Source: Rhodocyclaceae bacterium
GTDB lineage: Bacteria; Pseudomonadota; Gammaproteobacteria; Burkholderiales; Rhodocyclaceae
NCBI GenBank assembly: GCA_011391215.1
Contig: JAABQX010000016.1
Span: 12,201 to 76,200, forward strand
Length of the DNA stretch: 64,000 bases
Direction of reading: 5' to 3'
This document shows, in pieces, positions 1,648 through 63,542 of the stretch (within the stretch, counting starts at the first letter, position 1; each line of letters opens with the position of its first letter). The notes beneath the pieces are model-generated. The model saw nothing but the letters and a program-made list of their open reading frames with translations. It made no database searches and had not been told where the DNA came from. The position numbers and the translations under genes are program-made.

Positions 1648-1671
1648 GCCGTCCTGCCAACGCCGACTTTC
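1648..1671 (+). repeat. Dispersed 24-bp motif copy (intergenic)
   Basis: gccgtcctgccaacgccgactttc. Confidence 0.85.
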
Positions 1672-1703
1672 TTTCACCGATCCGACTCACCATCTCAAAC
1701 ACC

Positions 1704-2666
1704 ATGACTTCCGACTCCCTGCAAATTGCCATTAACCGCCAACGACAGATTCTGAAAGGCTGGCTTTCTTCGTCCCTGGGTAGCCTTGCCGAGGACTGTC
1801 GTCAGGCCTGGCCCGATCGCCTCGCAATCGAGGAACGGCTGTCGTCGGCCATGCTCGAATTGCCCTATTGCAAATACCTGTATGTGCTTGATGCGCACGC
1901 ACGACAGATCACCGCCAACCTGTCGCGCAACGGACCGCTGCCCGAGCAGATCGATCGCGACAGAAGCACGCGCCCCTACATGGCGGCGGCACTGGCCGGC
2001 GAGCCGTTCTCCCTCTCGGAAGCCTATCTGAGCCGCAATACGCGACGCCCGACACTCACTGCCGTACAGCACATCCATGATGCGCAGGGCAACTTGCTGG
2101 GATTGCTGGGGGCGGACTTTGACCTGCGCGAACTACCCGCGACCCAGGACCTGTACCGCCAACCGGAGCAATGGGTGCAGCTGAAAGGTGACCCAGCCAT
2201 CCGTTCCGGCCTCTTCCATCAAGCGCGCACAGACAGCCTGCTCGACGAACATATCGACACGGTGCTGGATCAGCTGACGGAATTGATGACGGTGCATGGC
2301 GTGTTTCACGGCAAGCTGCACTTTTCGAGTTCGCGCGCGACGCTGTGGCTGGTCAACGACCCCTACCGCTATCACCTGCTGAGCATCCAGGAACTCACCG
2401 ACCCCAATCTCTGCCTGGCTTATCCGCGTTGCCCCTACCCGGAAAAAGCGCTCGTGCCCGCCCAGCGCATCAAGGAAATCCTGCTCACCTTCAAGGCGCT
2501 GCGCCTGATGGACGAGACCCTGTATCTGCGCTCGGGCACGCTCAACATTTTTAACGGCCTGGTCGGGCTGACCTTTTCATGCGACGGATCGCACTACATG
2601 CCCTGGGACGAGTTTCTTACCAAGAATCTGGAATTCTGGCTGGGCACACCACCCAAACCACGCTGA
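1704..2666 (+). CDS. PDC/Cache sensor-domain-containing cytoplasmic protein
   Basis: 320 aa; Cache-like DRSTRPY..F.LSEAYLS...RPTLTAV; no TM or signal peptide. Confidence 0.65.
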   Translation: MTSDSLQIAINRQRQILKGWLSSSLGSLAEDCRQAWPDRLAIEERLSSAMLELPYCKYLYVLDAHARQITANLSRNGPLPEQIDRDRSTRPYMAAALAGEPFSLSEAYLSRNTRRPTLTAVQHIHDAQGNLLGLLGADFDLRELPATQDLYRQPEQWVQLKGDPAIRSGLFHQARTDSLLDEHIDTVLDQLTELMTVHGVFHGKLHFSSSRATLWLVNDPYRYHLLSIQELTDPNLCLAYPRCPYPEKALVPAQRIKEILLTFKALRLMDETLYLRSGTLNIFNGLVGLTFSCDGSHYMPWDEFLTKNLEFWLGTPPKPR

Positions 2667-2669
2667 CCC

Positions 2670-2693
2670 GCCGTTCCGCCAACGCCGACTTTT
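2670..2693 (+). repeat. Dispersed 24-bp motif copy between convergent genes
   Basis: gccgttccgccaacgccgactttt. Confidence 0.85.
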
Positions 2694-3591: not shown

Positions 3592-3726
3592 TCGCCTTCA
3601 ACCTTGTACTTTTTGTATCGAATGAATGGACGATATTGTGGCTTATCTTGCGCCATTGTGTCGAATACACTCGTATCTGCAATCATGTCATCTATAAGAC
3701 ACTTAACACAACTCTCGGAGAAAACC

Positions 3727-5325
<1,599 letters not shown>

Positions 5326-5328
5326 TCA

Positions 5329-5373
5329 GCCATCCCCGCCGCGCCGACGTAAAGTCGGCGCCGGCGGTACGGC
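5329..5373. terminator. Hairpin made of two inverted copies of the 24-bp motif between convergent aceB and icd-like genes
   Basis: gcgccgac-gtaaa-gtcggcgc stem extended by ccgcc/ggcgg; right arm taaagtcggcgccggcggtacggc. Confidence 0.7.
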
Positions 5374-5386
5374 GCCCTGACCCTGT

Positions 5387-10022: not shown

Positions 10023-10817
10023 ATGCTCACCGCTCCCCGCCTGCTTGTCGGCCATGTCATGCACCGGCGCCTCCGCCCTGCCGTGAATGCCTTCGTCTAT
10101 CCGGTGTTCTACGTGCAGCTGCCGTTGCGCACTGTGGCGGCGGCAGAGTGCGGCATCTTTTCGGTGGATCGCTGGAATCTGCTGAGCTTCCAAAGCCGTG
10201 ACCATGGCCCACGCGACGGCTCGCCGCTGCTGCCCTGGATGCAACACCTGTTGCGCACACACGGCCTGCCCGACGACGGTGAAATCGTGCTGCAGACCTT
10301 CCCGCGCGTGCTCGGCTTCGTCTTCAATCCCGTCAGTTTCTGGTTTTGCCATGACCGGAGCGGCGCGTTGATCGCCGTGCTGGCCGAGGTCAACAATACT
10401 TTCGGCGGCACCCACAGTTACCTGCTGCACAACCCCGCCGGCGCCCCGCTCGTGGATGGCCTGGAATTGCAGGCGGGCAAGGTGTTCCATGTTTCGCCGT
10501 TTTGCAACGTCGAAGGTGATTACCGCTTCCGCTTCCAGCGTGAGACCGGCACGCAGGTCGCCCATATCGACTATTACGACCAGGGCCGTGCGGAAGAGCC
10601 CGTTCTGCTGACGGCAATCTCCGGCAAGCCGCAGCCCTGGACGGCGGGCGCGTTGTGGCTGGCCTTCCTGCGCATGCCGCTGCTGACGTTTGGCGTCATC
10701 GCGCGCATTCACTGGCAAGCACTCAAACTCTGGCTGAAAAAAGTGCCCTTCCATGGCATGCACCCCTCCCTCCCCTACCCACCCGCCCCCCAATCCCGAC
10801 AGGAGCCGACACGATGA
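10023..10817 (+). CDS. DUF1365 protein (UfaO/RSP_1090-like)
   Basis: GHVMHRRLRP, PRVLGFVFNPVSFW, AEVNNTFG, KVFHVSPF, IHWQALKLW. Confidence 0.9.
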   Translation: MLTAPRLLVGHVMHRRLRPAVNAFVYPVFYVQLPLRTVAAAECGIFSVDRWNLLSFQSRDHGPRDGSPLLPWMQHLLRTHGLPDDGEIVLQTFPRVLGFVFNPVSFWFCHDRSGALIAVLAEVNNTFGGTHSYLLHNPAGAPLVDGLELQAGKVFHVSPFCNVEGDYRFRFQRETGTQVAHIDYYDQGRAEEPVLLTAISGKPQPWTAGALWLAFLRMPLLTFGVIARIHWQALKLWLKKVPFHGMHPSLPYPPAPQSRQEPTR

Positions 10818-12007
10818 ACAACACTCTGACCCTCCGCCATGGCGAACCGCTGCGCCGCGATACTCGCACGGTCTTCTCGATGCTCGAAAAGTTGCAGGGC
10901 GGCATGCTGGATGTACGCCTGCCCGACGGTTCGAACACACTGTTCGGCGACGGCGTTCCGGGTGTGACGCTGCAGGTGCATGACGAGGCCATGTTCGGCC
11001 ACGTGCTGGCGCGCGGCGACATCGGCCTGGCCGAAGCCTATCTCGACGGACTCTGGGATGCGCCGGACCTGACCGGGTTCCTCACACTGTTGGCGCGCAA
11101 CCGTGAGGCTTTGCAAAAGGCCGTCTATGGCGCCTGGCACAAGCTGCTGGCCGCGCGAATTCGTCATTATTTGAACCATAACAGCAAGGCCGGCAGCCAG
11201 CGCAACATCATGGCCCACTATGATCTGGGCAACGATTTCTACCGCTTGTGGCTTGATCCGGGCATGAGCTATTCGGCCGCAATCTTCACCCGGGGGAATC
11301 AATCACTGGAACTTGCCCAGTATGCCAAGTACCGGCGCATCCTCGATCGGCTGCAGGCAGCACCCGGCGCGCGCGTGCTCGAAATCGGTTGCGGCTGGGG
11401 TACTTTTGCCGAAGTGGCGGAACGTGCCGGATTGCACGTCACCGGTCTGACCCTGTCGCCCGCCCAGCTGGAATGGGCGCAACGCCGTGCCGCCAGCGCC
11501 GACTTGCGCCTGCAGGACTATCGCGACCTCGCTGAGCGCTTCGACCATGTCGTCTCCATCGAGATGTTCGAAGCCGTCGGCGAACGCTGGTGGCCAACCT
11601 ATTTTGCTGCCGTAGCGCAAGCCCTGCAGCCGGGCGGGCGCGCAGTGGTCCAGAGCATCACCATCCGCGACGACCTGTTCGCCGATTACCGCAAGGGCAC
11701 CGACTTCATCCAGCAATACATCTTTCCCGGCGGGATGTTGCCGTCGCGCAGCGCATTCCGCCGGCAGGCCGAACGCCAGGGCTTGGTCGTGCAGGATGAA
11801 TTCGCCTTCGGTCTCGACTATGCCCGCACGCTGGCCCACTGGCGCGAGTCCTTCGAGGCGGCCTGGCCGCAGATCGCCGCGCTCGGCTTTGACGAGACCT
11901 TCCGCCGTCTCTGGCGCTTTTATCTGAGCTATTGCGAGGCCGGCTTCCTGGCCGGCAACATCGATGTCGTGCAGTTCGAGCTCGCGCATCGGCCGCCAAC
12001 AAACTAA
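10814..12007 (+). CDS. cfa: Cyclopropane-fatty-acyl-phospholipid synthase family methyltransferase
   Basis: NIMAHYDLGNDFY, LEIGCGWG, SIEMFEAVG, FIQQYIFPGG, YLSYCEAGF. Confidence 0.9.
   Translation: MNNTLTLRHGEPLRRDTRTVFSMLEKLQGGMLDVRLPDGSNTLFGDGVPGVTLQVHDEAMFGHVLARGDIGLAEAYLDGLWDAPDLTGFLTLLARNREALQKAVYGAWHKLLAARIRHYLNHNSKAGSQRNIMAHYDLGNDFYRLWLDPGMSYSAAIFTRGNQSLELAQYAKYRRILDRLQAAPGARVLEIGCGWGTFAEVAERAGLHVTGLTLSPAQLEWAQRRAASADLRLQDYRDLAERFDHVVSIEMFEAVGERWWPTYFAAVAQALQPGGRAVVQSITIRDDLFADYRKGTDFIQQYIFPGGMLPSRSAFRRQAERQGLVVQDEFAFGLDYARTLAHWRESFEAAWPQIAALGFDETFRRLWRFYLSYCEAGFLAGNIDVVQFELAHRPPTN
11484..11507 (+). repeat. Dispersed 24-bp motif copy inside cfa
   Basis: gccgtgccgccagcgccgacttgc (RAASADL). 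Confidence 0.65.
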
Positions 12008-13237
12008 ATGGCAGCTCTGCCAAGCTCGCGCGTCATTGCCTACGGCCTACTCGGCCTGCCGCTCGCCTTCGCGGCGTTGCCGGTGTATGTCCATGTGCCA
12101 CGATTCTACGCCGAGGTCGCCGGTATGGAGCTTGCCCTACTCGGGGCGATCCTGCTCGGCGCGCGTTTGCTCGACGCCGGCATCGATCCGTGGCTCGGCT
12201 GGCTCGCCGACCGCGTACGGCGCCCGACCATGGTGGCGCTGGCCCTGCTGCCGTTCGCGTTCGGCTTCGTCGCCCTACTCAATCCGCCGCAAACGCATGC
12301 AGCCTTCTGGCTGCTCGGTGCGCTGGCACTAACCACCCTTGGCTATTCAGCCGCCTCGATCGCCTACCAGGCCTGGGGCGCCGATGTGGGCAGCGATCCG
12401 GCCCAGCGCACGCGCCTGACGGCCGCCCGCGAAGGCTTCGGTCTGGTCGGCGTGTTGCTCGCTGCAGCCCTGCCAAGCCTGCTGGCGGCGAGCATGACGG
12501 AAGGCATCGCCCGACTGGCTTGGTTGTTGCCGCCGCTGTTACTGGTAGCGGCCGTCATCACGTTTGCAAAAGTCGGCGCTGGCGGGATGGCACTGCGCAG
12601 CGAACCGCTCTGGCCCAGCCTGCGTGCGGTCTTCGCCCAGCAGGCCTTCCGCCGGCTGCTGGCCGTATTCGTCGCCAACGGCATCGCCGCCGCGCTGCCG
12701 GCGACGCTGTTCCTGTTCTTCGTTGCCGACGTGCTGCAGGCGGAAGCCTACAGCGGCGCACTACTGGCGCTGTATTTCATTGCCGGCGCCGCCTCGCTGC
12801 CCCTCTGGGTCGTGCTGGCCAACCGCTACGGCCGGGTGTCGGCCTGGCTGCTGGCGATGATCCTCGCCATCCTGACCTTCGCCGGCGCCAGCCAGCTCGG
12901 GGCCGGCGACACCACGGCCTTCGCAGTGATCTGCATTGCCTCGGGACTGGCACTTGGCGCCGACCTTGCCTTGCCGGCGGCCATTGCCGCCGACCTGGGA
13001 GAACGGCAAGGGCAGGCCGGCGTCTGCTTCGGCGTCTGGAACTTCGTCGCCAAGCTCAACCTCGCGCTGGCCGCCGGGCTGGCGCTGCCGCTGCTCGCCG
13101 CGCTCGGTTACTCGCCAGGCCAGCAGACGGCACTGCCCGCGCTGAGTTTTGCCTATGCCCTGCTGCCCCTGTTGTTCAAGGGCTTGGCCGCCGCGCTGCT
13201 CTGGCGCTGGCGGCACTCTCTGGAGATCGACCGATGA
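12008..13237 (+). CDS. MFS transporter (GPH/MelB-like)
   Basis: ~12 hydrophobic segments; ARLLDAGIDPWLGWLADR. Confidence 0.88.
   Translation: MAALPSSRVIAYGLLGLPLAFAALPVYVHVPRFYAEVAGMELALLGAILLGARLLDAGIDPWLGWLADRVRRPTMVALALLPFAFGFVALLNPPQTHAAFWLLGALALTTLGYSAASIAYQAWGADVGSDPAQRTRLTAAREGFGLVGVLLAAALPSLLAASMTEGIARLAWLLPPLLLVAAVITFAKVGAGGMALRSEPLWPSLRAVFAQQAFRRLLAVFVANGIAAALPATLFLFFVADVLQAEAYSGALLALYFIAGAASLPLWVVLANRYGRVSAWLLAMILAILTFAGASQLGAGDTTAFAVICIASGLALGADLALPAAIAADLGERQGQAGVCFGVWNFVAKLNLALAAGLALPLLAALGYSPGQQTALPALSFAYALLPLLFKGLAAALLWRWRHSLEIDR
12568..12591 (-). repeat. Dispersed 24-bp motif copy inside the MFS gene
   Basis: aaaagtcggcgctggcgggatggc (KVGAGGMA). Confidence 0.85.
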
Positions 13238-14514: not shown

Positions 14515-14937
14515 ATGAAACTGGATGCCCTGATCGACTTCTATCAAACCTTCACGCCGGAAAGCGTCGCCCGCTTCGACGCGTTCTATGCCGATAACGT
14601 CTGGTTCAAGGACCCGTTCAACGAGGTGCGTGGCCTGCCGGCCATCCAGCGCATTTTCACGCACATGTTCAGCCAGGTCGCCGAGCCGCGTTTCGTCATC
14701 ACCGAGCAAGTCGTTGATGCCGGCGGCGCCATGCTGGTCTGGGAGTTTTACTTTCGGGTGCACCGTTGGGGCCGCGCCGAGGCGATGATCCTGCGCGGCG
14801 TGTCACATCTCAAATTCGATGACGCCGGCAAAGTGATGTTCCATCGCGACTACTGGGATACCGCCGAAGAGCTCTACATGAAGCTGCCGGTTCTTGGGAC
14901 GCTGATGCGCAGCTTGCGGAAGGCATTTGCCGCGTAA
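14515..14937 (+). CDS. SnoaL-like/NTF2-family protein
   Basis: FKDPFNEVRG, HRDYWD. Confidence 0.88.
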   Translation: MKLDALIDFYQTFTPESVARFDAFYADNVWFKDPFNEVRGLPAIQRIFTHMFSQVAEPRFVITEQVVDAGGAMLVWEFYFRVHRWGRAEAMILRGVSHLKFDDAGKVMFHRDYWDTAEELYMKLPVLGTLMRSLRKAFAA

Positions 14938-14959
14938 AAGTCGGCGGTGGCGGGACGGC
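14936..14959 (-). repeat. Dispersed 24-bp motif copy overlapping stop codon; left island boundary
   Basis: aaaagtcggcggtggcgggacggc. Confidence 0.85.
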
Positions 14960-15000
14960 GACAGCCGACCCTGAAGAGCCAGTCAGGTTTATCCATCCAA

Positions 15001-25739: not shown

Positions 25740-25763
25740 AAAAGTCGGCGCTGGCAGGACGGC
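25740..25763 (-). repeat. Dispersed 24-bp motif, consensus copy; right island boundary
   Basis: aaaagtcggcgctggcaggacggc. Confidence 0.9.
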
Positions 25764-25828
25764 ATGTCCCGCATGGAGCGCGCTACCCGCCTTATCATGG
25801 GCGATGTTTTGATCCGGGAGTCGCTTCA

Positions 25829-33694: not shown

Positions 33695-34888
33695 TTACCT
33701 CCCAATCATCTTCGAAATATGCTGCACGATGGCACGCGCAACGTCCAGTTTGTCGCCGGGTGGCAGGGGATGCGCACCCGCATCATCAAACAGCGTGACA
33801 ACATTGGCGTCGCCGCCCAGTCCGTCCTGCACCAGATTACCGACCACCAGCGGCAGGTGTTTGGCCCGCCGCTTGCCTTCGGCGTATTCGGCCAGATTCT
33901 GACTTTCCGCCGCAAAACCGACGCAAAAAGGTGCATTCGAGCCCCCCGCCACCTCGGCCAGAATGTCGGGGTTCGCCACCAGTTCGAGCGTCAGCGTTGT
34001 CGCACCTTTCTTGATCTTGTGTTCCATCGCTGCGGCCGGGCGAAAATCCGCCACTGCGGCGACAGCGATAAAAATGTTGGCCGGCAAAGCAGCCAGCACC
34101 GCCTCACGCATCTGCAAGGCGCTCTGCACGTCGATGCGCGTCACACCTGACGGCGTTGGTAGGGCGATGGGGCCACAGATCGCCGTCACGCCAGCGCCGA
34201 CTTCTGCACAGGCGCGCGCCAGCGCAAAGCCCATCTTTCCAGAGCTGCTGTTGGTCAGCCCGCGCACCGGGTCGAGCGCTTCGAAAGTCGGCCCGACGGT
34301 CAGCAATACCCGCTTGCCCGCGAGTAATTTAGGCTGGAAGAAAGCCATCAGTGCATCGAGTATCTCGGCAGGTTCGAGCATGCGTCCTTCGCCCACCTCT
34401 CCGCAAGCTTGCGCACCACTTGCAGGACCGAGCACGCTGACGCCATCGGCCTCGAGTTGTGCGACATTGCGCGCGGTGGCCGGATGTTCCCACATCTGGC
34501 GGTTCATGGCCGGGGCAACCAGCAAGGGGCAATCGCGCGCCAGACAGAGCGTCGAGAGCAGATCGTCAGCAAAGCCATGCACCAGCTTGGCGATGAAATC
34601 GGCGGTCGCCGGCGCGACCAGCACCGCATCCGCACCGCGTTCACCATGGGTCAGATCTATATGTGCCATGCCACCAGCAAAACGCTCATCCCAGAGCGAG
34701 GTGGCCACGGGATGTCCCGACAGTGCCTGAAAGGTCGCGGCGCCGACAAAGCGGCTACCCGCCTCCGTCAGCACCACGTCGACGGTGGCACCCGCCTTCA
34801 CCAGCAACCGTACCAGCTCTGCCGCCTTGTAGGCCGCCACGCCGCCGGTGACACCGAGCACGATGCGCTTGCCTTGCAGTGGGTTCAT
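33695..34888 (-). CDS. coaBC: Phosphopantothenoylcysteine decarboxylase/ligase
   Basis: GVTGGVAAYK, APAMN, ACGEVGEGRM, NSSSGKMG, AAVADF, VGFAAES. Confidence 0.97.
   Translation of the reverse strand: MNPLQGKRIVLGVTGGVAAYKAAELVRLLVKAGATVDVVLTEAGSRFVGAATFQALSGHPVATSLWDERFAGGMAHIDLTHGERGADAVLVAPATADFIAKLVHGFADDLLSTLCLARDCPLLVAPAMNRQMWEHPATARNVAQLEADGVSVLGPASGAQACGEVGEGRMLEPAEILDALMAFFQPKLLAGKRVLLTVGPTFEALDPVRGLTNSSSGKMGFALARACAEVGAGVTAICGPIALPTPSGVTRIDVQSALQMREAVLAALPANIFIAVAAVADFRPAAAMEHKIKKGATTLTLELVANPDILAEVAGGSNAPFCVGFAAESQNLAEYAEGKRRAKHLPLVVGNLVQDGLGGDANVVTLFDDAGAHPLPPGDKLDVARAIVQHISKMIGR
34182..34205 (+). repeat. Dispersed 24-bp motif copy inside coaBC
   Basis: gccgtcacgccagcgccgacttct (EVGAGVTA on the coding strand). 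Confidence 0.75.
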
Positions 34889-36551: not shown

Positions 36552-37898
36552 TCAGCGTAAATTACGCAGCTTGCGATAGAGCGTACGCTCGCTGATCCCC
36601 AACTCTGCCGCCAAAGCCTTGCGGTTGCCTTGATGCCGCACCAGGCGTTCGCGGAGCGCATTGACCGCAAGTTCCGACAGCGTGGGTGACGCGCCACCGG
36701 TCGGATACGCATTTGATGCCGTCCCGCCTGCGCCAACTTCCTGCGGAGCGCCCCACTGAATCGCCTCTTGAACTTCGATAGACAGATCTACGGGCTGGAT
36801 CGTGTCACCATCGCACAGCAACGTCGCCCGCTCCAGCACATTACGCAGCTCGCGCACGTTGCCGGGGTAACCGTAGTTCATCAGGCAGGCCATTGCTTCA
36901 GGGCTGATGTGCAGTTGGCGATTCGGCGCAACACGCGACAGCAAGGCTTCCGCCAGTAGCGGCACATCCGAACTGCGCTCGCGCAAGGCCGGCAGAACGA
37001 TCGGGAAGGTATTCAGGCGATAATACAAATCCTGACGGAAACGTCCGTCCTGCACCATCGCCCGCAGATTACGGTGGGTGGCCGAGATCAGGCGGATGTC
37101 GGCCTTGAGAAACTCGCTGGCACCGACCCGCCGGAAGGCGCCCGTTTCCAGCAAGCGCAACAACTTCACTTGCATCCCCAACGGAATATCGCCCAACTCA
37201 TCGAGAAACAGCGTGCCCCCGGAAGCCGCCTCGACCAAGCCGATGCGCCGCGCCGCAGCTCCGGTAAATGAGCCCTTTTCGTGGCCGAACAGCTCGCTCT
37301 CAAACAGGGTTTCCGTGAGACCGGAACAATCGACTGCGACAAACGGCTGCTCGGCACGCCGGCTGGCATCGTGGATCGCCTTTGCCACCAGCTCCTTGCC
37401 GGAACCCGACTCGCCTTGCAGCATTACTGTCGCATCAGAGGGCGCCACGCGCGACATCAGTTCGAGCATGCGGCGAAACGCCGGCGCACGCCCTACCAGC
37501 GCGCGTGCATCAGGCAGGCCATGCGAGACCCCCAGCGGTTCCATCTTCTCGATGAAATAAGCAACCTTGCCATCCCCGCCACACACCGGCGCAAGCTCGA
37601 TATTCACGTAAGCCTCGCCCTCCCGCGTATGGTGAAGATGCAATATCCGCTCGCGCTGCCCTGAAGCGAGGCTTTGCTTGAGCGGACAGGTTTCACCCGC
37701 CAGATCGCAAGGTTTGCTGTAATGGTGGGATACCGCATAACAGGTCTGTCCCACGACTGCCTGACCGCTGCCATAGATATGCCGGTAGGCCTTGTTGGCT
37801 GCGAGAATGTAATAGTTCGTATCGCACAGAATATGCGGTTCGGGCAAGGTATCGAGATAAGAAACCAACTCGGCGAGGGGTTGCATTGCCGTTGCCAT
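36552..37898 (-). CDS. Sigma54-dependent enhancer-binding protein, FisR-like (candidate sulfane-sulfur sensor)
   Basis: GESGSGKE, ESELFGHEKGSFTGA, Fis HTH; N-terminal C-x10-C-x6-C (CYAVSHHYSKPCDLAGETC). Confidence 0.85.
   Translation of the reverse strand: MATAMQPLAELVSYLDTLPEPHILCDTNYYILAANKAYRHIYGSGQAVVGQTCYAVSHHYSKPCDLAGETCPLKQSLASGQRERILHLHHTREGEAYVNIELAPVCGGDGKVAYFIEKMEPLGVSHGLPDARALVGRAPAFRRMLELMSRVAPSDATVMLQGESGSGKELVAKAIHDASRRAEQPFVAVDCSGLTETLFESELFGHEKGSFTGAAARRIGLVEAASGGTLFLDELGDIPLGMQVKLLRLLETGAFRRVGASEFLKADIRLISATHRNLRAMVQDGRFRQDLYYRLNTFPIVLPALRERSSDVPLLAEALLSRVAPNRQLHISPEAMACLMNYGYPGNVRELRNVLERATLLCDGDTIQPVDLSIEVQEAIQWGAPQEVGAGGTASNAYPTGGASPTLSELAVNALRERLVRHQGNRKALAAELGISERTLYRKLRNLR
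36718..36741 (+). repeat. Degenerate 24-bp motif copy in the EBP linker
   Basis: gccgtcccgcctgcgccaacttcc (EVGAGGTA). Confidence 0.6.
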
Positions 37899-42170: not shown

Positions 42171-43156
42171 TCGGGTTTTTCCAGTGTGATCGTCGTGGCG
42201 ATCTGATCGAAAACTTCGCCTTTGCGGTCGCGGTGGCGAATCTTGAGGGGCAGGCGGGTCACGGTGTCGAGCCAGATTTCGGTGGAATCCTCGTTCAACC
42301 GGCCGGCAATCTTGAGGTGGCGCACCTCGCGCTCACCCAAAGGGGAGTCAAGCTTCAGCGTCTCGCCGACCACAACGACGAATTTTGACACTTTGCGCCC
42401 CGTCTTCACAGATATCGTGAATTCAGGCACATCGAACGAGGCCGCGCCCAGCTGGTAGAAAAGTGAAAGCAGATCCTGCGTCGGCAAGGTCGCGTCTTGC
42501 GGGGCATCGAAACGAAACTCGCTCTTCGGCTTGCCATCGCGCTCCGTCCTGAATTCCTGTGGCTGCAAGCCGTTTGCGGTAAACGCCCCGCGACTGGTCT
42601 GCGTGACCTGCACCGGCCGGAACAAAGCCGCCAGGCCGATCGTTTCGGCCACCGCATGCAGTTCGTAGCTCTGCTCATCATGCGTCCAGCGATGTTCGCC
42701 CTGCCCGACGATGAGGCCGCCATCGCCGCGCGTCACCTGAAAGACGATGCGGCCGTTTTTCGGCCAGAGATTGGCGTAAGCAAAAGTCGGCGCTGGCAGG
42801 ACGGCAGCAGCAGCCGGTTCAGGGGCCGCAGCTGAGGGTGAGGGTGATTCCGGGACGAATGCCGGCGCTGTTTCCGCTACCGGCATGGAATCTGTCACAG
42901 CAACGGGCATAGCCGGTGTCGCTGGCGGCGGTGGTCGCGGCTTGGGGACGGGCTTGGGGACGGGCTTGGGCAAAAGTTTGGGCGGCGCTTTGGGTTGCGT
43001 CTGCACCGGGACCACCAGCGTTGCGTCGAGCATTTCCTGAGGTTCCTCGTCCTCCAGCAGGGGCAGGCGCCAGCCCGGCACGGTCAGCACAGCCAGATGC
43101 AGCAGCAGCGAAAACCCCAGGGCCAGCCGGAACGGCCGGCGCACCGTGACATTCAT
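42167..43156 (-). CDS. DUF3108-domain protein with Pro-rich linker
   Basis: N-terminal TM SLLLHL, PKPVPKP repeats, QDLLSLFYQL, EIWL...LPLKIR; sits between purN and rsmB-like gene. Confidence 0.7.
   Translation of the reverse strand: MNVTVRRPFRLALGFSLLLHLAVLTVPGWRLPLLEDEEPQEMLDATLVVPVQTQPKAPPKLLPKPVPKPVPKPRPPPPATPAMPVAVTDSMPVAETAPAFVPESPSPSAAAPEPAAAAVLPAPTFAYANLWPKNGRIVFQVTRGDGGLIVGQGEHRWTHDEQSYELHAVAETIGLAALFRPVQVTQTSRGAFTANGLQPQEFRTERDGKPKSEFRFDAPQDATLPTQDLLSLFYQLGAASFDVPEFTISVKTGRKVSKFVVVVGETLKLDSPLGEREVRHLKIAGRLNEDSTEIWLDTVTRLPLKIRHRDRKGEVFDQIATTITLEKPE
42782..42805 (-). repeat. Dispersed 24-bp motif, consensus copy inside the DUF3108 gene
   Basis: aaaagtcggcgctggcaggacggc (AVLPAPTF). 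Confidence 0.9.
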
Positions 43157-43791: not shown

Positions 43792-44477
43792 TAGATGGGC
43801 AGGAAAACGGCGTAGGCAATATTCTGGACGATCTTGACGACGGTACGATTCGTCTTGTCGGCGACGGTGGACGTCAGCAAATCGAGGTTGCCGATCAGGC
43901 GGCCGAACTCGCGTTCGAAGCTGAGATTCTGCAGCGGCGACATCTCGTTGGAAAACAGGATGGGCGCGCCCGCCGGAATATCCCCTTCGGGTTGCGTGCG
44001 GTGCGCATCCGCCAGCTTCCACGCGGCGATTTCGACATTGCGCGCGGCGTTGTAAAGTTTCTGTGCATCCAGGTCATCGAGGACAAAGAACTCGTTCTTG
44101 CCCTCGAATGCATCGTTAATCATCGTGTCCAGCCCGCCGATAAACGCGGCCACCCGGTCATGGGGGTAATCCTCACGCAATGCGGCAAGGATCGCGGCGG
44201 TACCGCGCAGCCCATCGGGTTCCGGCGGATAGGCAAACCTGGCCGGGTCGGCGAGCTTGGCCAAGGCCGCCGCCAGGCTGGCGTGGCGGCCTTTCTTCCA
44301 TTCGCGCGGGTTACGCTTGTAGAGTTTTTCGGCGAGGCGTAGCAGGCTGGCATTCACTTCGCGCCGGTGCAGGTCGGCGTTGCGGTCGATGTCGGTCTTG
44401 ACAAACTGCCCGGGGCTAGTCACGCAACCCGTCAGCGGCAATGTCAGCAACGCAAACAGGCAGGTACGACGCTTCAT
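43791..44477 (-). CDS. Hypothetical lipoprotein
   Basis: Lipobox LTGC; KLYKRNPREW, NLSFER; coupled with neighbours. Confidence 0.75.
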   Translation of the reverse strand: MKRRTCLFALLTLPLTGCVTSPGQFVKTDIDRNADLHRREVNASLLRLAEKLYKRNPREWKKGRHASLAAALAKLADPARFAYPPEPDGLRGTAAILAALREDYPHDRVAAFIGGLDTMINDAFEGKNEFFVLDDLDAQKLYNAARNVEIAAWKLADAHRTQPEGDIPAGAPILFSNEMSPLQNLSFEREFGRLIGNLDLLTSTVADKTNRTVVKIVQNIAYAVFLPI

Positions 44478-45193: not shown

Positions 45194-46966
45194 ATGCCGC
45201 GCATTCTTCCCCTTCCCGACCTCCTGATCAGCCAGATCGCCGCCGGCGAGGTCGTCGAGCGTCCGGCGTCCGTCCTCAAGGAGCTCATCGAAAACAGCCT
45301 GGATGCCGGCGCGACGAAAATCGACGTGCAGATCGAGGAAGGCGGCGTCAAGCTGATCCGCGTCGCCGACAACGGCAGCGGCATGCCGCGCGACGATCTG
45401 CCGCTGGCACTGGCGCGCCACGCCACCAGCAAGATCGCCACCCTGGACGATCTCGAGCGTGTTGCCAGCTACGGCTTTCGTGGCGAGGCGCTGGCCTCCA
45501 TCGCCGCCGTGGCGCGCGTTTCCATCACCAGTCGCACAGCCGATGCACCACATGCCTGGAAGCTCGATGCTGGAATGGCGGACAGCACGCCGGCAGCGCT
45601 GGCGGAGGGCACGGTGATCGTCGTCGCCGACCTCTACTTCAACACGCCGGCACGCCGCAAGTTCCTCAAAACCACCGGCACCGAATATGCCCATTGCGAC
45701 GACGTACTGACGCGCATGGCTCAGGCGCGACCGGATGTCAGCTTCACGCTGGCGCACAACGGCCAGGTCAAGCGCCGCCTGCTCGCGCCGTCCCGCGAGG
45801 GCCGTCCTGCTAGCGCCGACTTTTCGCGCCGCGCCCACGAGCTGCTCGGCGACGAGTTCCTCACTCATGCACGCAATGTCATGGCCGAGGCCGGCCCGCT
45901 CAGATTGTCCGGCTTCGCCGCCCTGCCCGCCTACGCCAAATCATCACGCACGGAGCAGTATTTCTACGTCAATGGCCGCTTCGTGCGCGACAAGCTGCTC
46001 GTGCATGCGGCGCGCGAGGCCTACGCCGACGTACTCCATGGCGCGCATCATCCGGCCTACGTGCTGTTCCTCGAACTCGATCCGGCGACGGTGGATGTCA
46101 ACGTGCATCCGGCCAAGACGGAGGTACGTTTTCGCGATGCGCGCGGCGTGCATCAGTTCGTCTTCCATGCCCTGCAGCGCACGCTGGCCGAGCCGCTGGC
46201 GGCTACACGCACTGAGACAAGTACCGTCCCGCCAGTGCCGACTTTTTCATGGCCACAGCAAAGCTTCGCCGTACGCGAACCCGATGCCACCGCCTATCTC
46301 GATTTTGCGCGGCAAGCCTTCTCTGCACCTGCCGTAACCCATGCGGGGCATTTCATCTCGCCGGCACCGACTTTTAGCTCGGGTGATGCCCCGCTCGGCT
46401 ACGCCCTCGCCCAACTCCACGGCATCTACATCCTGGCCCAGAACGCGCAAGGCCTGGTACTGGTAGACATGCATGCCGCGCACGAACGCATCCTCTACGA
46501 ACGGCTCAAGAACGCTGTCGATGCCCGCCCCTCGGTGCAGCCACTCCTTGTGCCCCTGCTGTTCTCGGCTAGCCCCGGCGAAATCGCCAGTGCCGAAAGC
46601 CATGCCGACACTCTGGCCGCGCTCGGTTTCGAAATTGCGCCCGCCGGCCCGCAGCAGCTTGCAGTGCGCGCCGTGCCCGCGCTGCTAGGCGGCGGCAATA
46701 TCGAGAACCTGGCGCGTGCTCTGCTCGCCGAGCTGGCCGACCACCCTGCCAGCCGCGTACTGGAAACCCATCGCAACGAACTACTCGGCACCATGGCCTG
46801 CCACGGCGCCGTGCGGGCGCACCGCAGCCTTAGCATTCCCGAGATGAACGCACTGTTACGCGACATGGAAACCACCGAACGCGCCGACCAATGCAACCAC
46901 GGCCGACCGACCTGGGTGCAGTTATCCATCACTGATCTGGATCGTTTGTTCCTGCGCGGCAGATGA
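45194..46966 (+). CDS. mutL: DNA mismatch repair endonuclease MutL
   Basis: [49 protein letters not shown]. Confidence 0.97.
45801..45824 (+). repeat. Dispersed 24-bp motif copy in mutL
   Basis: gccgtcctgctagcgccgactttt (RPASADF); partial gccgtcccgc at 45787. Confidence 0.88.
46223..46246 (+). repeat. Dispersed 24-bp motif copy in the mutL linker
   Basis: accgtcccgccagtgccgactttt (TVPPVPTF). Confidence 0.85.
46352..46375 (+). repeat. Degenerate 24-bp motif copy in the mutL linker
   Basis: ttcatctcgccggcaccgactttt (FISPAPTF). Confidence 0.6.
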
Positions 46967-48680: not shown

Positions 48681-48704
48681 AAAAGTCGGCGCTGGCGGTA
48701 CGGC
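48681..48704 (-). repeat. Dispersed 24-bp motif copy filling the ycgR/purM convergent gap
   Basis: aaaagtcggcgctggcggtacggc. Confidence 0.9.
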
Positions 48705-48707
48705 GCT

Positions 48708-51238: not shown

Positions 51239-52597
51239 ATGATCCGCAAGCTGCTGCGCCGCGTCTTCAAACGCGGCGAACCCACCCCCCATAAAGTTGA
51301 AACCATCGGCCCCGACCAGCATGGCATCCGCGTCGAAGGCGTCTCGCCTGGTGCGCGCCGCACCTGCATCACCTTGCAGGAGGCGGGGCACCGTGCCTTC
51401 GTGGTCGGCGGTGCGGTACGCGACCTGATCGCCGGCATCACGCCCAAGGATTACGACATCGCCACCGATGCCACGCCCGATCAGGTGCGCCATCTGTTTC
51501 GCCGTTCCCGCATCATCGGCCGGCGCTTCCAGATCGTGCATGTCATGCAGGGCGCCGAGACGCTGGAAGTTTCGACCTTCCGTGCCGCGCACGACGAGGA
51601 CACGCTGAAGGACGAGCACGGCCGTGTGTTGCGCGACAACGTCTGGGGCAACATGGAAGAAGATGCGGCGCGGCGCGATTTCACCGTCAATGCACTCTAT
51701 TACGACCCGAGCAATGGCAAGATATTCGACTACCACCACGGTGTGCGCGACCTGCAACGCAAGACGCTGCGCATGATCGGTGACCCGCGTGCGCGCTATC
51801 GCGAAGACCCCGTGCGCATGCTGCGTGCCGTGCGTCTCGCGGCCAAGCTCGACCTACGTCTCGACCCGCTGGTGCAAGCACCGATCCGCGAGATGGCCGA
51901 ATTGATCGACAACGTGCCGGCGGCGCGCCTCTTCGACGAAATGCTCAAGCTGCTGTTTTCCGGTCACGCGGTCGAATGCGTCCGACGCTTGCGCGAAGAC
52001 GGCCTGCACCACGGCCTGCTACCGCTGCTCGACGTCATTCTCGAGCAACCCCTGGGCGAAAAATTCGTCATGCTGGCGCTGGCGGATACGGACAAACGCA
52101 TCCAGGCCGGCAAGCGCACCTCGCCGGGCTTCCTGTTCGCTACCTTGCTGTGGCACGAAGTGCTGGCCAACTGGGAAACGCGCAAGAAGAACGGGGAGAC
52201 GCCCATCCCCGCGCTGCATGCCGCGATGGACGAAGTGCTCGACACGCAGGGCGAAAAACTAGCCATCACGCGGCGTATCGCCGGCGATATCAAGGACATC
52301 TGGCTGCTGCAGCCGCGTTTCGAAAAACGCAGCGGCCGCGCCCCTTTCCGCCTCGTCGAACAGCAGCGCTTCCGCGCCGCCTGGGACTTCCTGCACCTGC
52401 GCGCACAAAGTGGCGAAGCGCCACAGGAACTCTCCGACTGGTGGCTGGCCTTTCAGGAAGCCGGCAACGCTGAACGCGAAGAAATGCTCAAGCCCGACAC
52501 GACACCGAAAAAACGTCGCCGCAGTCGCGGCAGCCGGGGAGGCAAAGCCGGCGAAGAGGCTGCCGCCGTCCCGCCAGCGCCGACTTTTACGGACTGA
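51239..52597 (+). CDS. pcnB: Poly(A) polymerase
   Basis: VGGAVRD, DYDIAT, IIGRRF, RRDFTVNAL, EDPVRMLRA. Confidence 0.95.
   Translation: MIRKLLRRVFKRGEPTPHKVETIGPDQHGIRVEGVSPGARRTCITLQEAGHRAFVVGGAVRDLIAGITPKDYDIATDATPDQVRHLFRRSRIIGRRFQIVHVMQGAETLEVSTFRAAHDEDTLKDEHGRVLRDNVWGNMEEDAARRDFTVNALYYDPSNGKIFDYHHGVRDLQRKTLRMIGDPRARYREDPVRMLRAVRLAAKLDLRLDPLVQAPIREMAELIDNVPAARLFDEMLKLLFSGHAVECVRRLREDGLHHGLLPLLDVILEQPLGEKFVMLALADTDKRIQAGKRTSPGFLFATLLWHEVLANWETRKKNGETPIPALHAAMDEVLDTQGEKLAITRRIAGDIKDIWLLQPRFEKRSGRAPFRLVEQQRFRAAWDFLHLRAQSGEAPQELSDWWLAFQEAGNAEREEMLKPDTTPKKRRRSRGSRGGKAGEEAAAVPPAPTFTD
52565..52588 (+). repeat. Dispersed 24-bp motif copy at the pcnB 3' end
   Basis: gccgtcccgccagcgccgactttt (AVPPAPTF). 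Confidence 0.9.
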
Positions 52598-55833: not shown

Positions 55834-57093
<1,260 letters not shown>

Positions 57094-57490: not shown

Positions 57491-57508
57491 CTTTTTCCGC
57501 TACCTGCC

Positions 57509-59086
57509 ATGATTTACGGCTCATACCAGGACAACTCGCCGCGCTTGCCCACGCTTGCGCTGTTTTTGCTGGCGGGCGTTTATCTGCTGGCGGGCATCAC
57601 CGGCCATGATCCATGGAAGAACGAGGATGCCGTGCATATCGGCATCGCTCACGATTTTCTGGCCCACGGCAACTGGTTCTTCCCGCGCGTCGCCGGCGAA
57701 CCCTGGCCCCACACCGCTCCCTTGTATCACTGGGTCGCAGCACTCCTGGGCTACCTCCTGGGTGGCCTGCTCGAGTTTCACAATGCCGCGCGCCTGGCCA
57801 CCGCGTTGTTCGGCGCCTTGTTTTTCATCTCACTGGCGGGCGCGGCCCGTGCGTTCTTCGGCGCAACAGCCGGACGCTCTGCACCCCTGCTGGCAATGGG
57901 AACACTTGGACTGTTGTTGCCGATCCACGATGCCCAACCGGCCATCGCCGGGCTCGCTTTCGCCGCGCTGGCCTATTGGGGCGGCGGACTGATCCTACTA
58001 GGAAAAGCGCATGGTGCGCTGTTGCTCGGCGTCGGCCTCGGCCTGGCTTTTCCCGCCCACGGCCTGGTCGGCCTGCTCATGGCCAGCGCCGTCCTGCCGG
58101 CGCCGATTTTTCGGCGTGACTGGAAGAGCCTGGGACTGGCGCTCGCCATCGCCCTCCCCCTGATAGCCGCCTGGCCGCTCCTGGTGGCCAGCCGCTCGCC
58201 GGGATTGTTGGCAGAATGGTGGCAAAACGAGATCGCCGAAGCCACGATCACGCGCGGCCTTCCGGATGTACGCCACATCGAGCAACTGATCTGGGCCGCA
58301 TGGCCGGTCTTGCCGTTGGCGGTCCTGGGTTTCTGGACGTACCGTCACCGGGTAAACAAACTGGCACTGCCATTGCTCGGCGCCGTCCTCACGCTGCTGT
58401 GGTATCTCACCGGATCGTCGCGCGCCCTGGGAGTTCTACCCCTGTTGCTGCCGCTCACCCTGATCGCCACGGCGGGCATCGAGCACATGCGCCGAGGCGC
58501 AGCGAATGCCTTCGATTGGTTCGGCGTCATCACCTTCACTTTCTTCTCCGGGCTGCTCTGGCTCGGCGCCAGCGCCCAGGCGTTCGGTTGGCCGCCGACG
58601 ATTGCCAATAACTTCAGGAAACTGGCGCCGGGACACGAACTGCACTACCCGGCCATCGCCCTGATATTTGCCGCCCTGCTCTCTGTCGCCTGGGTACTGT
58701 CCTGGCGTTTGCCGCGCGCTACCTGGCGTGCCAGCCTGCACTGGGCAGCCGGCACAACGCTGATGTGGGTGCTGGCGGCAATTCTCTTGCTACCCTGGTT
58801 CGACCATGCCAAGTCGTACCGCCCGGTCGTGCAGTCATTGAGCGCAGCCCTGCCCCCGGACGTCAACTGCATCGAACGCAGCAAACTCAATTCCGGGCAA
58901 CTTGCCGCGCTCGACTATTTTTCCGGCATCCGCACCCGGCCGGCAGCACCGGGAAGGAAATGCGCTTTTCGTCTCACTGAGGACGATAAAAACCGGAAAC
59001 CCCCGGTCGGCTGGACCGAACGCTGGCGAGGCCATCGCCCCGGCGACCGCGACGTGCGCTGGTATCTCGACCAGCGCAACGAATAA
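57509..59086 (+). CDS. ArnT-like membrane glycosyltransferase
   Basis: GHDPWKNEDA, PLYHW, many TM, RRGAANAFDWF, KSYR. Confidence 0.75.
   Translation: MIYGSYQDNSPRLPTLALFLLAGVYLLAGITGHDPWKNEDAVHIGIAHDFLAHGNWFFPRVAGEPWPHTAPLYHWVAALLGYLLGGLLEFHNAARLATALFGALFFISLAGAARAFFGATAGRSAPLLAMGTLGLLLPIHDAQPAIAGLAFAALAYWGGGLILLGKAHGALLLGVGLGLAFPAHGLVGLLMASAVLPAPIFRRDWKSLGLALAIALPLIAAWPLLVASRSPGLLAEWWQNEIAEATITRGLPDVRHIEQLIWAAWPVLPLAVLGFWTYRHRVNKLALPLLGAVLTLLWYLTGSSRALGVLPLLLPLTLIATAGIEHMRRGAANAFDWFGVITFTFFSGLLWLGASAQAFGWPPTIANNFRKLAPGHELHYPAIALIFAALLSVAWVLSWRLPRATWRASLHWAAGTTLMWVLAAILLLPWFDHAKSYRPVVQSLSAALPPDVNCIERSKLNSGQLAALDYFSGIRTRPAAPGRKCAFRLTEDDKNRKPPVGWTERWRGHRPGDRDVRWYLDQRNE
58088..58111 (+). repeat. 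Dispersed 24-bp motif copy inside the ArnT-like gene
   Basis: gccgtcctgccggcgccgattttt (AVLPAPIF). Confidence 0.82.
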
Positions 59087-59092
59087 ACCGGG

Positions 59093-59638: not shown

Positions 59639-59706
59639 ATAATCCTCATGAATTCCAAGCAGTTAGTTAGCTTGCATTCTGGCACATTTCCCCCATTCTT
59701 AACTCC

Positions 59707-60951: not shown

Positions 60952-60963
60952 AAGGAGTCACGC

Positions 60964-61275
60964 ATGAACGTCCGCACATTCACACTCTCCAGCGCATTTC
61001 TCGCCGTCCTGGCAGCGCCGACTTTTGCCGCCGACAAAGTCGACGTCAATGCCGGCAAGACCCTGCATGACCAGCAGTGCAAGGCTTGTCATGTGCAACG
61101 CTGGGGCGGCGACGGCAGCGCCGTGTATACCCGTCCGGACCGCAAGATCAAGGATGCCAAAGCCCTGGGCCAACGCGTCGCCATGTGCAGCACGCAAACC
61201 AGCGCCAAGTTTTTCCCGGAGGACGAAGCCAACGTCTCGGCCTACTTGGCGCAGCAGTTCTACAAGTTCAAGTGA
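60964..61275 (+). CDS. Small monoheme cytochrome c
   Basis: Signal peptide, CKACH, YTRPDRK. Confidence 0.85.
   Translation: MNVRTFTLSSAFLAVLAAPTFAADKVDVNAGKTLHDQQCKACHVQRWGGDGSAVYTRPDRKIKDAKALGQRVAMCSTQTSAKFFPEDEANVSAYLAQQFYKFK
61003..61026 (+). repeat. Dispersed 24-bp motif copy in a signal-peptide coding region
   Basis: gccgtcctggcagcgccgactttt (AVLAAPTF). Confidence 0.88.
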
Positions 61276-61276
61276 C

Positions 61277-61561
61277 ATGAGCGCGCTCTCCCCCTCCGAC
61301 ATTGCGGATCGACTCACCCGTCTGGATGGCTGGACGCTGGAGGGCAATTGCATCAGCAAAACCTACCGTTTTGCCAACTATCATGAAACGCTGGCCTTTG
61401 TGAATGCAGGCGCCTGGGTTTCCCATCGCACCGATCATCATCCAGATCTTGAAGTTGGTTACAACCGTTGTCGTGTCAGCTACAGCACGCACGATGCCGG
61501 CGGCCTGACAAACAAGGATTTCGATTGTGCAGCGCGCCTTGACGCGCTGTTTGCGCTTTGA
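61277..61561 (+). CDS. phhB: Pterin-4a-carbinolamine dehydratase
   Basis: DHHPDL, STHDAGGLT.KDF..AA. Confidence 0.9.
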   Translation: MSALSPSDIADRLTRLDGWTLEGNCISKTYRFANYHETLAFVNAGAWVSHRTDHHPDLEVGYNRCRVSYSTHDAGGLTNKDFDCAARLDALFAL

Positions 61562-62448
61562 GTACGGCAGACAACAGCGGAACCATCACGGCCGCCTTCG
61601 GCCGGCATTACGAAGTCACCCTCGCCGACGGCAAGCTCGTCAATGGCATCCCGAAAGGCAAGAAAAGCCCCTTTGCCTGCGGTGATCATGTCACGCTGGG
61701 ACCGCTTCACGACAGCGAAGCGCAAATCCTCAGTCATGATCTGCGCAGCAGCCTGCTGTATCGTAGCGATCGGTGGAAACAGAAACTGATCGCTGCCAAT
61801 GCCACTCAGGTCGTGCTGGTCGTCGCCACCGAACCCGGCTTCTCTGACGAGTTGATCTCGCGTGCCACGGTTGCCGCACTGCACGAACACATGCGCGTGG
61901 TCATCGTGCTCAACAAGGCCGATCTCACCACCAGCTTGACAGCAGCGCGCGCGCAACTCGCGCCCTTTGCCGCCATGGGCATTCCCGTTGTCGAAGTCAG
62001 CGCTCTTGAGGATGCCAGCCCGCTGCTACCCTGGCTGGCTGGCCAGATTTCGGTGCTGGTCGGGCAAAGCGGCATGGGGAAATCCACCCTCACCAACGCC
62101 CTGATTCCGGACGCCGGCGCCGCCACGCGTGAAATCTCCACTGCGCTCGATTCCGGCAAACACACGACCACCCATGCCAGGATGTACGGCCTGCCCGGCG
62201 GCGGAAAAGTGATCGACTCGCCCGGCTTGCAGGAATTCGGCCTCGCCCACCTGACGCGCGGCGAAATCGAACTCGGTTTTGCGGAATTCGCCGCGCATCT
62301 CGGTCGCTGCCGTTTTCGCGATTGCCGACACGAAAACGAGCCCGACTGCGCCATCAAGGTGGCCATCGCGAATGGCGCCATCGATGCACGCCGGCTGACA
62401 CATTTCATCACCATTGCCAACGAGGGCGACCGGGCAAAATCGTTCTGA
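61558..62448 (+). CDS. rsgA: Ribosome small subunit-dependent GTPase A
   Basis: NKAD, GQSGMGKS, GKHTTT, DSPG, CRFRDCRH..EPDC. Confidence 0.95.
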   Translation: MSTADNSGTITAAFGRHYEVTLADGKLVNGIPKGKKSPFACGDHVTLGPLHDSEAQILSHDLRSSLLYRSDRWKQKLIAANATQVVLVVATEPGFSDELISRATVAALHEHMRVVIVLNKADLTTSLTAARAQLAPFAAMGIPVVEVSALEDASPLLPWLAGQISVLVGQSGMGKSTLTNALIPDAGAATREISTALDSGKHTTTHARMYGLPGGGKVIDSPGLQEFGLAHLTRGEIELGFAEFAAHLGRCRFRDCRHENEPDCAIKVAIANGAIDARRLTHFITIANEGDRAKSF

Positions 62449-63542
62449 TGCCGCACCTGTTTGTCGATATTTCTGCGCACGGTTTCGGACATCTGGCCCA
62501 GGTCGCACCGGTGCTAAACCGGCTCGCCGAATTGCTACCAGAATTGCGCATCACCCTGCGCAGCGGCCTGCCTTCCACAAAGTTGAAACAACGCATTCAG
62601 GCACCCTTTCAACACATCGCGTCGGCCAGCGATTTTGGCTACATGATGATCGATGCGCTGAGCATCGATCGCCCTGCCACCGCCGCTGCCTATCGCGCCG
62701 CCCACGCCAATTTTGCCGGGCGCGTCGCCGCAGAAACTGCGCTCCTGCAGCGCCTGGCCGTGGATGGAGTATTTACCGATGTCAGCTACCTGCCGCTCGC
62801 CGCAGCAGCGTCAGCCGGAATGCCTGCCGTGGCGCTATGCTCGCTCAACTGGGCCGACCTGTTTGCCCACTACTTCGGCCACGAGGAGTGGGCATCACCC
62901 ATCCATGCCGAGATGCTGGCCGCCTACCGCACCGCCACGTTCCTGCGTACCACGCCGGGCATGCCCATGCCGGCACTCGACAAGTTGGTAACGATCGGCC
63001 CGCTCGCCGAACGTGGTCGCGAACGCCGTTGCGAGCTACGCGAAAAAGTCGGCGTTGGCAGGACGGCAACGCTGGTGGTGATAGCGCTCGGCGGCATCCC
63101 GGCGCGCCTGCCGGTCGAGACCTGGCCGGTGCTGGCAGACACGCACTGGCTCGTCCCGGCCGCCTGGAATGTCCAGCGCATCGATATGAGCAGCATCGAA
63201 GCGTTCGACTGGCCCTTCGTCGACTTGCTGCGTTCGGTCGACGCCGTCGTCACCAAGCCGGGCTATGGCACCTTCACCGAAGCGGCCTGCAACGGGACCG
63301 CCGTGCTCTACCAGCGGCGCGACGACTGGCCCGAGCAGGACTGCCTGATCGACTGGCTGCAAATCCATGCCCGCTGCACGCAGGTCACGGCAACGGATCT
63401 GGCGCGCGGCAATCTCGGTGCAGCGCTGGATAATTGCCTGCAAGCCGCCGTACCGCCAGTCCCACGGGGATTTCCTTCGGTCACGCCGACTTTTGACGGC
63501 AGCGAGACTGCGGCACGCTACCTCGCGAAAATCCTGAGTTGA
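62448..63542 (+). CDS. GT-B-fold glycosyltransferase-like hypothetical protein
   Basis: ISAHGFGH, D.VVTKPGYGTF.EA, R.DWPEQ. Confidence 0.7.
   Translation: MPHLFVDISAHGFGHLAQVAPVLNRLAELLPELRITLRSGLPSTKLKQRIQAPFQHIASASDFGYMMIDALSIDRPATAAAYRAAHANFAGRVAAETALLQRLAVDGVFTDVSYLPLAAAASAGMPAVALCSLNWADLFAHYFGHEEWASPIHAEMLAAYRTATFLRTTPGMPMPALDKLVTIGPLAERGRERRCELREKVGVGRTATLVVIALGGIPARLPVETWPVLADTHWLVPAAWNVQRIDMSSIEAFDWPFVDLLRSVDAVVTKPGYGTFTEAACNGTAVLYQRRDDWPEQDCLIDWLQIHARCTQVTATDLARGNLGAALDNCLQAAVPPVPRGFPSVTPTFDGSETAARYLAKILS
63044..63067 (-). repeat. Dispersed 24-bp motif copy inside the GT-like gene
   Basis: aaaagtcggcgttggcaggacggc (KVGVGRTA). Confidence 0.88.
63447..63494 (+). repeat. 24-bp motif copy split by a 24-nt in-frame insertion
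   Basis: gccgtaccgccagt [cccacggggatttccttcggtcac] gccgactttt. Confidence 0.7.

Follow-up and report, generated by a model that had tools for sequence, protein, structure and literature searches.

A dispersed 25-base word in Rhodocyclaceae genomes and its possible role as a self-DNA uptake signal

A 25-base word, YGCCGTCYYGCCAGCGCCGACTTTT, is dispersed through the chromosomes of a set of related Rhodocyclaceae. It was noticed in a stretch of 64,000 nucleotides (the window) at positions 12,201 to 76,200 of contig JAABQX010000016.1, from the Rhodocyclaceae bacterium assembly GCA_011391215.1. The observation of the dispersed word is confirmed, and the word behaves like an uptake sequence in every distribution test except terminator use. 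On balance, we favor the reading that it is a putative self-DNA signal, similar to the DNA uptake sequence (DUS) of Neisseriaceae and the uptake signal sequence (USS) of Pasteurellaceae, that biases DNA uptake and recombination.

The word and its placement in the source genome

The word was defined by a position matrix over the whole source assembly (G000; 2,330,469 bases in 102 contigs, 76% complete). The matrix finds 590 sites scoring 16 bits or more, an average of one per ~4 kb of chromosome, versus none in one fifth-order Markov genome of equal size. A clear trough in the score distribution lies beneath these sites, and pieces of the word top the 10- to 24-mer counts of the assembly. The word is asymmetric, GC-rich and built of two blocks with ~20 constrained positions, and it is not a short palindrome, unlike a motif of the HIP1 (highly iterated palindrome 1) type. 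Its edges are sharp, with information at background level just outside and uninformative flanks. A stem-loop of the repetitive extragenic palindromic (REP) type was not found, as five strands fold no better than their shuffles (z-scores -0.26 to 1.07), and Rfam gave no matches within the window at gathering thresholds.

The first-pass annotation of the window had described a 24-bp motif in about 23 copies, without strict strand polarity, as a dispersed genome signature. All 23 copies are real. The matrix recovers 22 of the starts, at 21.7-42.9 bits, with the same coordinates and strands; the copy at 63447 is also real but is not a plain one, since a 24-base insert separates the first 14 bases of the word from its 3′ end, which finishes at 63494. 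The motif stands, but its length must be revised to 25 bases, because a pyrimidine precedes GCCGT, and positions 7-8 are both C/T. The proposed placement of nine copies between genes and 14 in coding sequences (CDSs) agrees with our own gene calls, which give eight intergenic copies, one across a stop codon and 14 in CDSs. The count of 590 against none in the control genome and the presence of copies genome-wide and clade-wide bear out the description as a genome signature.

Our own gene caller gave 2,254 genes in the source assembly, with 89% of it coding. A total of 343 sites (58%) lie in CDSs, 199 lie between genes and 48 lie on a gene edge, mostly at a stop codon. Density is highest between convergent genes (50 sites in 37 kb), followed by tandem (104 in 124 kb) and divergent (37 in 67 kb) spacers and then by CDSs (343 in 2,081 kb). 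Sense and antisense sites in CDSs are approximately equal (158 and 185), which argues that the word is not an RNA or peptide signal. The reading frames are biased (128/87/67/49/8/4), and the favored frames read KVGAGGTA, AVPPAPTF and RRPASADF. Across octiles of codon score, density drops from 2.3-2.6 to 0.63 per 10 kb, which is approximately fourfold lower in the most codon-optimal genes.

Neighboring sites avoid each other. Under a null that preserves contig and genic class, 84 of the 499 neighbor gaps are expected to fall below 500 bp (minimum 60 in 1000 draws), and only 19 do; the coefficient of variation of the gaps is 0.78, versus 1.01±0.04 in the null. The proposed lack of strand polarity is confirmed by 229 sites on the leading and 261 on the lagging strand (p = 0.16; 83 contigs oriented by GC skew), whereas the FtsK-orienting polar sequences (KOPS) gave 166/65 in the same test. 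In the complete genome of the carrier G005, the 96 listed plus-strand matches split 48/48 between the two halves (hand count).

The word was also predicted to be depleted in foreign DNA, and this was observed. Windows in the lowest GC bins (at most 0.52), 32 kb in total, contain no sites, and the longest word-free stretches include island-like DNA and a ribosomal-protein operon (labels by eye). Two small replicons of G005, of lower GC, carry none in the 160 of 252 kb examined, and its chromosome carries 17 in 80 kb. Matches in PLSDB and INPHARED were at chance level only. IMG/VR contains 114 stretches with an exact match, and 80 of these hold 139 sites in 614 kb, a motif-selected sample that pools phage and host-flank DNA. 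One of them (L261:3000-4357, IMGVR_UViG_3300009945_000063) has five copies, four at a 316-bp period, in cassette-like units that carry the word and are each bounded by GCCTAAC...GTTAGGC ends that resemble integron attC sites.

Copies of the word in the window (bit scores from the G000 matrix; gene coordinates from our own gene calls):
1647..1671, + strand: plain copy, intergenic, 35.1 bits
2669..2693, + strand: plain copy, 3 bp past a stop codon, 35.1 bits
5350..5374, - strand: plain copy between convergent genes, 32.1 bits
11483..11507, + strand: in CDS 10814-12007 (CMAS methyltransferase), reads RRAASADL
12568..12592, - strand: in CDS 12008-13237, reads KVGAGGMA
14936..14960, - strand: across the stop codon of 14515-14937
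25740..25764, - strand: plain copy, intergenic, 41.4 bits
26918..26942, - strand: plain copy, 7 bp past a stop codon
33181..33205, - strand: plain copy between convergent genes
34181..34205, + strand: in coaBC, reads EVGAGVTA; no gaps in alignment to four relatives
36717..36741, + strand: weak copy in a sigma-54 activator gene, 21.7 bits
39032..39056, + strand: plain copy between convergent genes
42782..42806, - strand: in a DUF3108 gene, reads AVLPAPTF
45800..45824, + strand: in mutL, with part of the 5′ block duplicated ahead of it
46222..46246, + strand: in the mutL linker; the aligned site in G052 has the dialect of G052
46330..46375, + strand: long form A in mutL, with 21 bases inserted in frame after GCCGT
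48681..48705, - strand: plain copy that occupies the 27-bp spacer of a convergent gene pair
52564..52588, + strand: perfect copy near the pcnB 3′ end, reads AVPPAPTF, 42.9 bits
52826..52850, + strand: in the HPPK (folK) gene
58087..58111, + strand: in CDS 57509-59086; aligns to G002 and G005 without gaps
61002..61026, + strand: in the leader of CDS 60964-61275
63044..63068, - strand: in CDS 62448-63542, reads KVGVGRTA
63446..63494, + strand: long form B, a 24-base insert dividing the word in frame; the aligned G002 site is plain

Two open reading frames of the window, 62448-63542 (364 residues) and 43791-44477 (228 residues), have no Pfam match. The former holds two copies of the word and has no counterpart at the syntenic position of the congener G011.

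Dialects, losses and the origin of the sites

Among 24 congeners of the source genome, 23 carry 109-687 copies; the exception is G011, which has none in this count and 1 site in the 970 kb examined. At least 100 matches to the G000 spelling occur in 34 of 350 genomes of the family (hand count). A looser skeleton raised 21 of 80 chosen genomes to at least 100 matches, which adds the lineages g29 (6/8), g103 (6/7) and g96 (3/3) and the genomes G067 and G065. The dense word extends over about a dozen related genera; its carriers belong to Rhodocyclaceae and include Sulfuritalea and Sulfurisoma. In 389 genomes of other families in the order, the count never exceeds 16, and none is dense. In four genomes outside the family (G505, G038, G690 and G672), a small number of perfect words cluster on single contigs, in two dialects in G505; these words may mark transferred or mis-binned DNA.

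The skeleton YGSCGT-N10-YYGACTT is shared across lineages, and its spelling differs by lineage. In sampled DNA, the dialect of g29 is CGCCGT-SYY-GYNGRGA-CTGACTTT, that of g103 is CGGCGT...CTGACTTTG, and those of G119 and G096 are ...CCGACTTGC and ...TCGACTTT. Because word position 6 varies within and between lineages, kinship with neisserial DUS from the shared GCCGTC is not supported.

The Tex-like gene (loci L383-L408) bears on re-spelling and on possible loss. Read by eye, its C-terminal linker holds a site in 13 of the 16 carriers shown, each in its own spelling; among the non-carriers, G076 has a decayed site (PPVGAGGTP) and the other six have none. In the Tex tree, carriers and non-carriers are interleaved, and G076 is sister to the carrier G266 (98/97), although this is the tree of a single gene in which 7 of 23 inner branches are open and support elsewhere is weak. 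The interleaving and this sister pair suggest that the word may be an ancestral trait lost in some lineages. No replacement word was found in the non-carriers G011 (970 kb), G076 (43 kb) and G148 (43 kb).

The sites appear to arise mostly by substitution. When 81 internal CDS sites were compared with their G011 orthologues, 49 were gap-free, 17 had gaps of 1-3 residues, five had gaps of 4-6 residues and ten had gaps of at least 7 residues; six terminal sites were set aside, and several of the longest gaps lie at protein ends. Control windows were gap-free in 2,138 of 2,235 cases, and therefore the word sites prefer indel-tolerant places. Amino-acid identity to G011 is 35% inside the sites versus 70% in control windows. 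Multi-genome alignments are consistent with mostly gap-free placement. Moreover, the columns of the word are nearly independent, with 343 haplotypes in 578 sites versus 361±7 after column shuffling.

Proposed mechanism, receptor search and alternatives

According to the reading that we favor, a predicted protein of the natural-transformation pathway would read the word on double-stranded DNA, and word-bearing fragments would be taken up and recombined preferentially. A word that is two-block, non-polar, unstructured and re-spelt by lineage points to a trans-acting reader of duplex DNA, which would touch YGSCGT and YYGACTT ten bases apart, or about one helical turn. Better matches would be re-imported more often, so that point mutations toward the word would spread site by site, as a molecular drive with or without a repair benefit. 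One site would serve a fragment of ~1 kb or more, so close neighbors would be rare; a change of reader would re-spell all sites, and loss of the reader would leave them to decay. Base-by-base improvement at the expense of the protein, even spacing and spared replicons are best explained by biased re-import and homologous recombination, which is the model described for USS and DUS (PMC7811141 and PMC2397512). Even spacing is given as an expected outcome of uptake drive (PMC7811141), and the distribution of the word matches the properties reported for DUS (PMC2397512).

We advance more tentatively the view that this is a third, independently evolved self-DNA system, in free-living Rhodocyclaceae, with a two-block word of 25 bases and a reader that is neither a ComP- nor a ComN-type pilin and operates without ComEA. 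Within that view, the specificity of the reader would have drifted and been lost several times, with hundreds of protein-coding sites rewritten on each occasion. The self-recognition role put forward in the first-pass annotation is partly supported, by counts, range, non-polarity, the lack of a Y1/RAYT transposase in two complete carriers, foreign depletion and dialects, but not by terminators, by a carrier-specific ComP-like receptor or by kinship with DUS.

Several genes of the transformation machinery are present. A comEC match occurs in 80 of 80 genomes (78 above the cut-off), dprA occurs in five of five, comM and pilQ occur in four of five, and carriers have minor-pilin genes. The source assembly lacks pilQ, comM and the minor-pilin cluster jointly with their housekeeping neighbors, and in a 76%-complete genome this absence fits assembly gaps.

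Several results weigh against the uptake reading. Competence genes are equally intact in non-carriers and therefore do not discriminate. A carrier-specific ComP-like receptor had been anticipated, but 71 of 75 genomes, carriers and non-carriers alike, have PF16732 pilins, and the minor-pilin clusters, which are variable and not basic, do not follow the motif: the cluster of the carrier G201 is of the same type as that of the non-carrier G011. The kinds of pilin genes are the same in four carriers and G011, and no pilin follows the presence or dialect of the word in the PF16732 profile, the five-genome inventory or the cluster comparison. Of 40 genomes, only four (two carriers and two non-carriers) have a ComEA above the family cut-off, and a ComEA query found none in five carriers, four of them complete; this negative result is a real difficulty for a standard uptake pathway. 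The divergence of PilQ is unrelated to the word. The suggested use in terminators was not borne out, as the source genome has no inverted pairs within 100 bp and only three neighbor pairs of any kind at that distance. Only mutL and comEC hold three copies there, and 3.0 such genes are expected by chance. No report of transformation in the carrier clade was found in the literature. Finally, ~45 of the 590 sites are extended composites that share inserts, for which point mutation alone is insufficient.

Some candidates and side observations of this search should be recorded. An enrichment in repair and competence genes was dropped because the two three-copy genes do not exceed chance; in 15 other carriers, comEC holds approximately one clear copy apiece, at partly shared sites. 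In a set of four genomes, PilQ seemed divergent in the non-carriers, but this hint vanished across 80 genomes. PilQ is of a canonical or a strongly diverged type, independent of the word, the latter with 32-37% identity to the N-terminal half of G052 PilQ (the survey included L419 of G148, L420 of G076 and genomes of g18, g101, g96 and g53). Repeat proteins resembling transcription activator-like effectors were absent from G000, and basic exported small proteins gave no convincing candidate. A gene-loss screen by eye against G011 yielded 64 single-gene candidates and four longer runs with no DNA-receptor-like gene in the 970 kb of ~2.3 Mb covered, so a lost gene elsewhere is possible. Cyclase-like, metallo-hydrolase-like and cyclic-nucleotide-binding genes (by eye) at G000:C40:10265-14274 are missing in G011; they adjoin a PilB-like ATPase and an HD-GYP gene, after which G000 lacks the pilA found there in five relatives. 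The major-pilin locus of G242 and G129 (L185:1405-1584 and L186:1405-1584) encodes a 59-residue pilin, versus 136 residues in G002, and this short form resembles the pilins of conductive pili.

A cytoplasmic chromosome-organizing or DNA-processing protein could also bind the word, with even spacing kept by selection, either in a HIP1-like nucleoid role or as a loading site for SMC, a topoisomerase or a repair factor. We regard this as unlikely, although the strong even spacing, the bipartite conservation of double-stranded DNA type and the negative receptor and ComEA searches would fit it, and PMC5861425 proposes a structural role for HIP1. The word is not polar and is neither confined to nor excluded from the half-way region of the terminus. 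The chromosomal sites matS, SBS (SlmA-binding site), parS and KOPS differ in being regionally confined or excluded, or polar. Also against this reading are the absence of the word from the two small G005 replicons and its apparent loss in several lineages with normal-sized genomes, and selection acting on a single site among several hundred would need to prevail over heavy amino-acid change. Quite unlikely in our judgment is a bias at another step of exchange, through a recombination loader in the recipient or packaging or nicking at the word in the donor, which would run the same drive without a surface receptor. This would account for all distribution statistics and for the lack of a motif-tracking pilin, and the inserts shared by unlinked sites show inter-site copying, as expected if the word were recombinogenic. 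A gene-transfer agent is disfavored by the HK97-type capsid gene (PF05065), which occurs in just one of five complete carriers, and a Chi-like role is disfavored by the lack of polarity and by the Chi-like middle of the word (GCTGGCGG on the other strand), which is the part that changes between dialects.

The composites bear on a further alternative, namely that a transposase or nuclease spread the word as a short repeat that is, or once was, mobile, similar to REPs, REPINs (REP doublets forming hairpins) or miniature inverted-repeat transposable elements. In G000, form A (~17 sites) adds 21 bases after GCCGT, form B adds 24 bases (12 of the 14 insert matches lie inside a word) and form C (~14 sites) has an upstream module; G005 has 54-base tandem arrays, to which the few inverted copies are confined. 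These forms, the ten CDS sites facing gaps of at least 7 residues and genes similar to REP-associated tyrosine transposases (RAYTs) in G000 and G129 would agree with mobility. However, the word has no hairpin, most sites are gap-free with nearly independent columns, and spacing is repulsive rather than clustered. The RAYT-like genes score below the NF047646 cut-off and are flanked by their own, different inverted end repeats. The Y1 transposase family PF01797 is found in two of five genomes and in neither of the complete carriers G005 and G002, in accordance with the earlier expectation of no link to RAYTs or insertion sequences. A mobile-repeat origin of the plain word is largely refuted, and we consider it very unlikely. 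Forms A and B of the window are in frame, and relatives carry the plain word in the same region, which indicates that inserts were added to pre-existing sites; the composite inserts appear to have joined existing sites by some templated process.

One element, at G000:C37:30383-30445, contains the inserts of forms A and B head to head; a different GC-rich repeat, at G000:C33:5626, encloses another copy of insert B, which hints that both inserts may be small mobile hairpin modules. The RAYT-like Y1 transposase genes at L213 (G000:C57:9390-10106) and L214 (G129) are bounded by GGGGACAGACCACGG inverted ends, of which three repeats stand on one side in G000.

Comparison with known systems

To our knowledge, self-DNA uptake-tag systems have so far been described in only two other bacterial families. 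Among the matches listed by full-text literature searches, with subscription papers and bioRxiv supplements outside them, none dealt with this word or with uptake sequences of Rhodocyclaceae. If the favored reading is true, the word represents a third case, in environmental bacteria, and points to a new sequence-specific DNA reader; its several dialects and apparent losses in one clade would serve as natural replicates that bear on whether uptake sequences arise by repair selection or by drive alone. If the reader is instead cytoplasmic, a 25-base site that overwrites hundreds of protein segments would be without a described counterpart in the literature searched.

The word resembles the USS, which, according to PMC7811141 and 10.1101/2025.06.16.659825, is long, asymmetric and multi-block, occurs on both strands with even spacing, and has preferred coding frames, depletion in foreign or constrained DNA and lineage dialects. 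It differs from the USS in sequence, in being GC-rich with ~20 constrained positions, in its density (one per 4 kb versus one per 1 kb) and in lacking inverted-pair terminators, which DUS and USS have (10.1101/2025.10.24.684340). The USS has a predicted receptor, PpdA/ComN, whereas no receptor was found for the word. With the DUS, the word shares dialects, permissive core-gene sites and absence from recently acquired DNA (PMC2397512); the DUS has 10-12 bases versus 25, and its receptor is ComP (PF16732). Pilins of PF16732 are family-wide in the carriers' family and do not track the word, and we do not take the shared GCCGTC as homology.

Similar to the word, the cyanobacterial HIP1 (GCGATCGC) is hyper-abundant, conserved in and between genes, non-randomly spaced and of unknown function (PMC5861425), but it is an 8-base palindrome and the word is an asymmetric, bipartite sequence of 25 bases. 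REPs and REPINs with their RAYTs are likewise short, numerous and enriched between genes, with a minority of composite or tandem forms. In contrast, the word has no hairpin, lies in CDSs at 58% of its sites, is mostly born by substitution and unclustered, and occurs without a Y1 transposase in two complete carriers. Motifs of the KOPS or Chi type are polar (166/65 for KOPS), whereas the word (229/261) is not.

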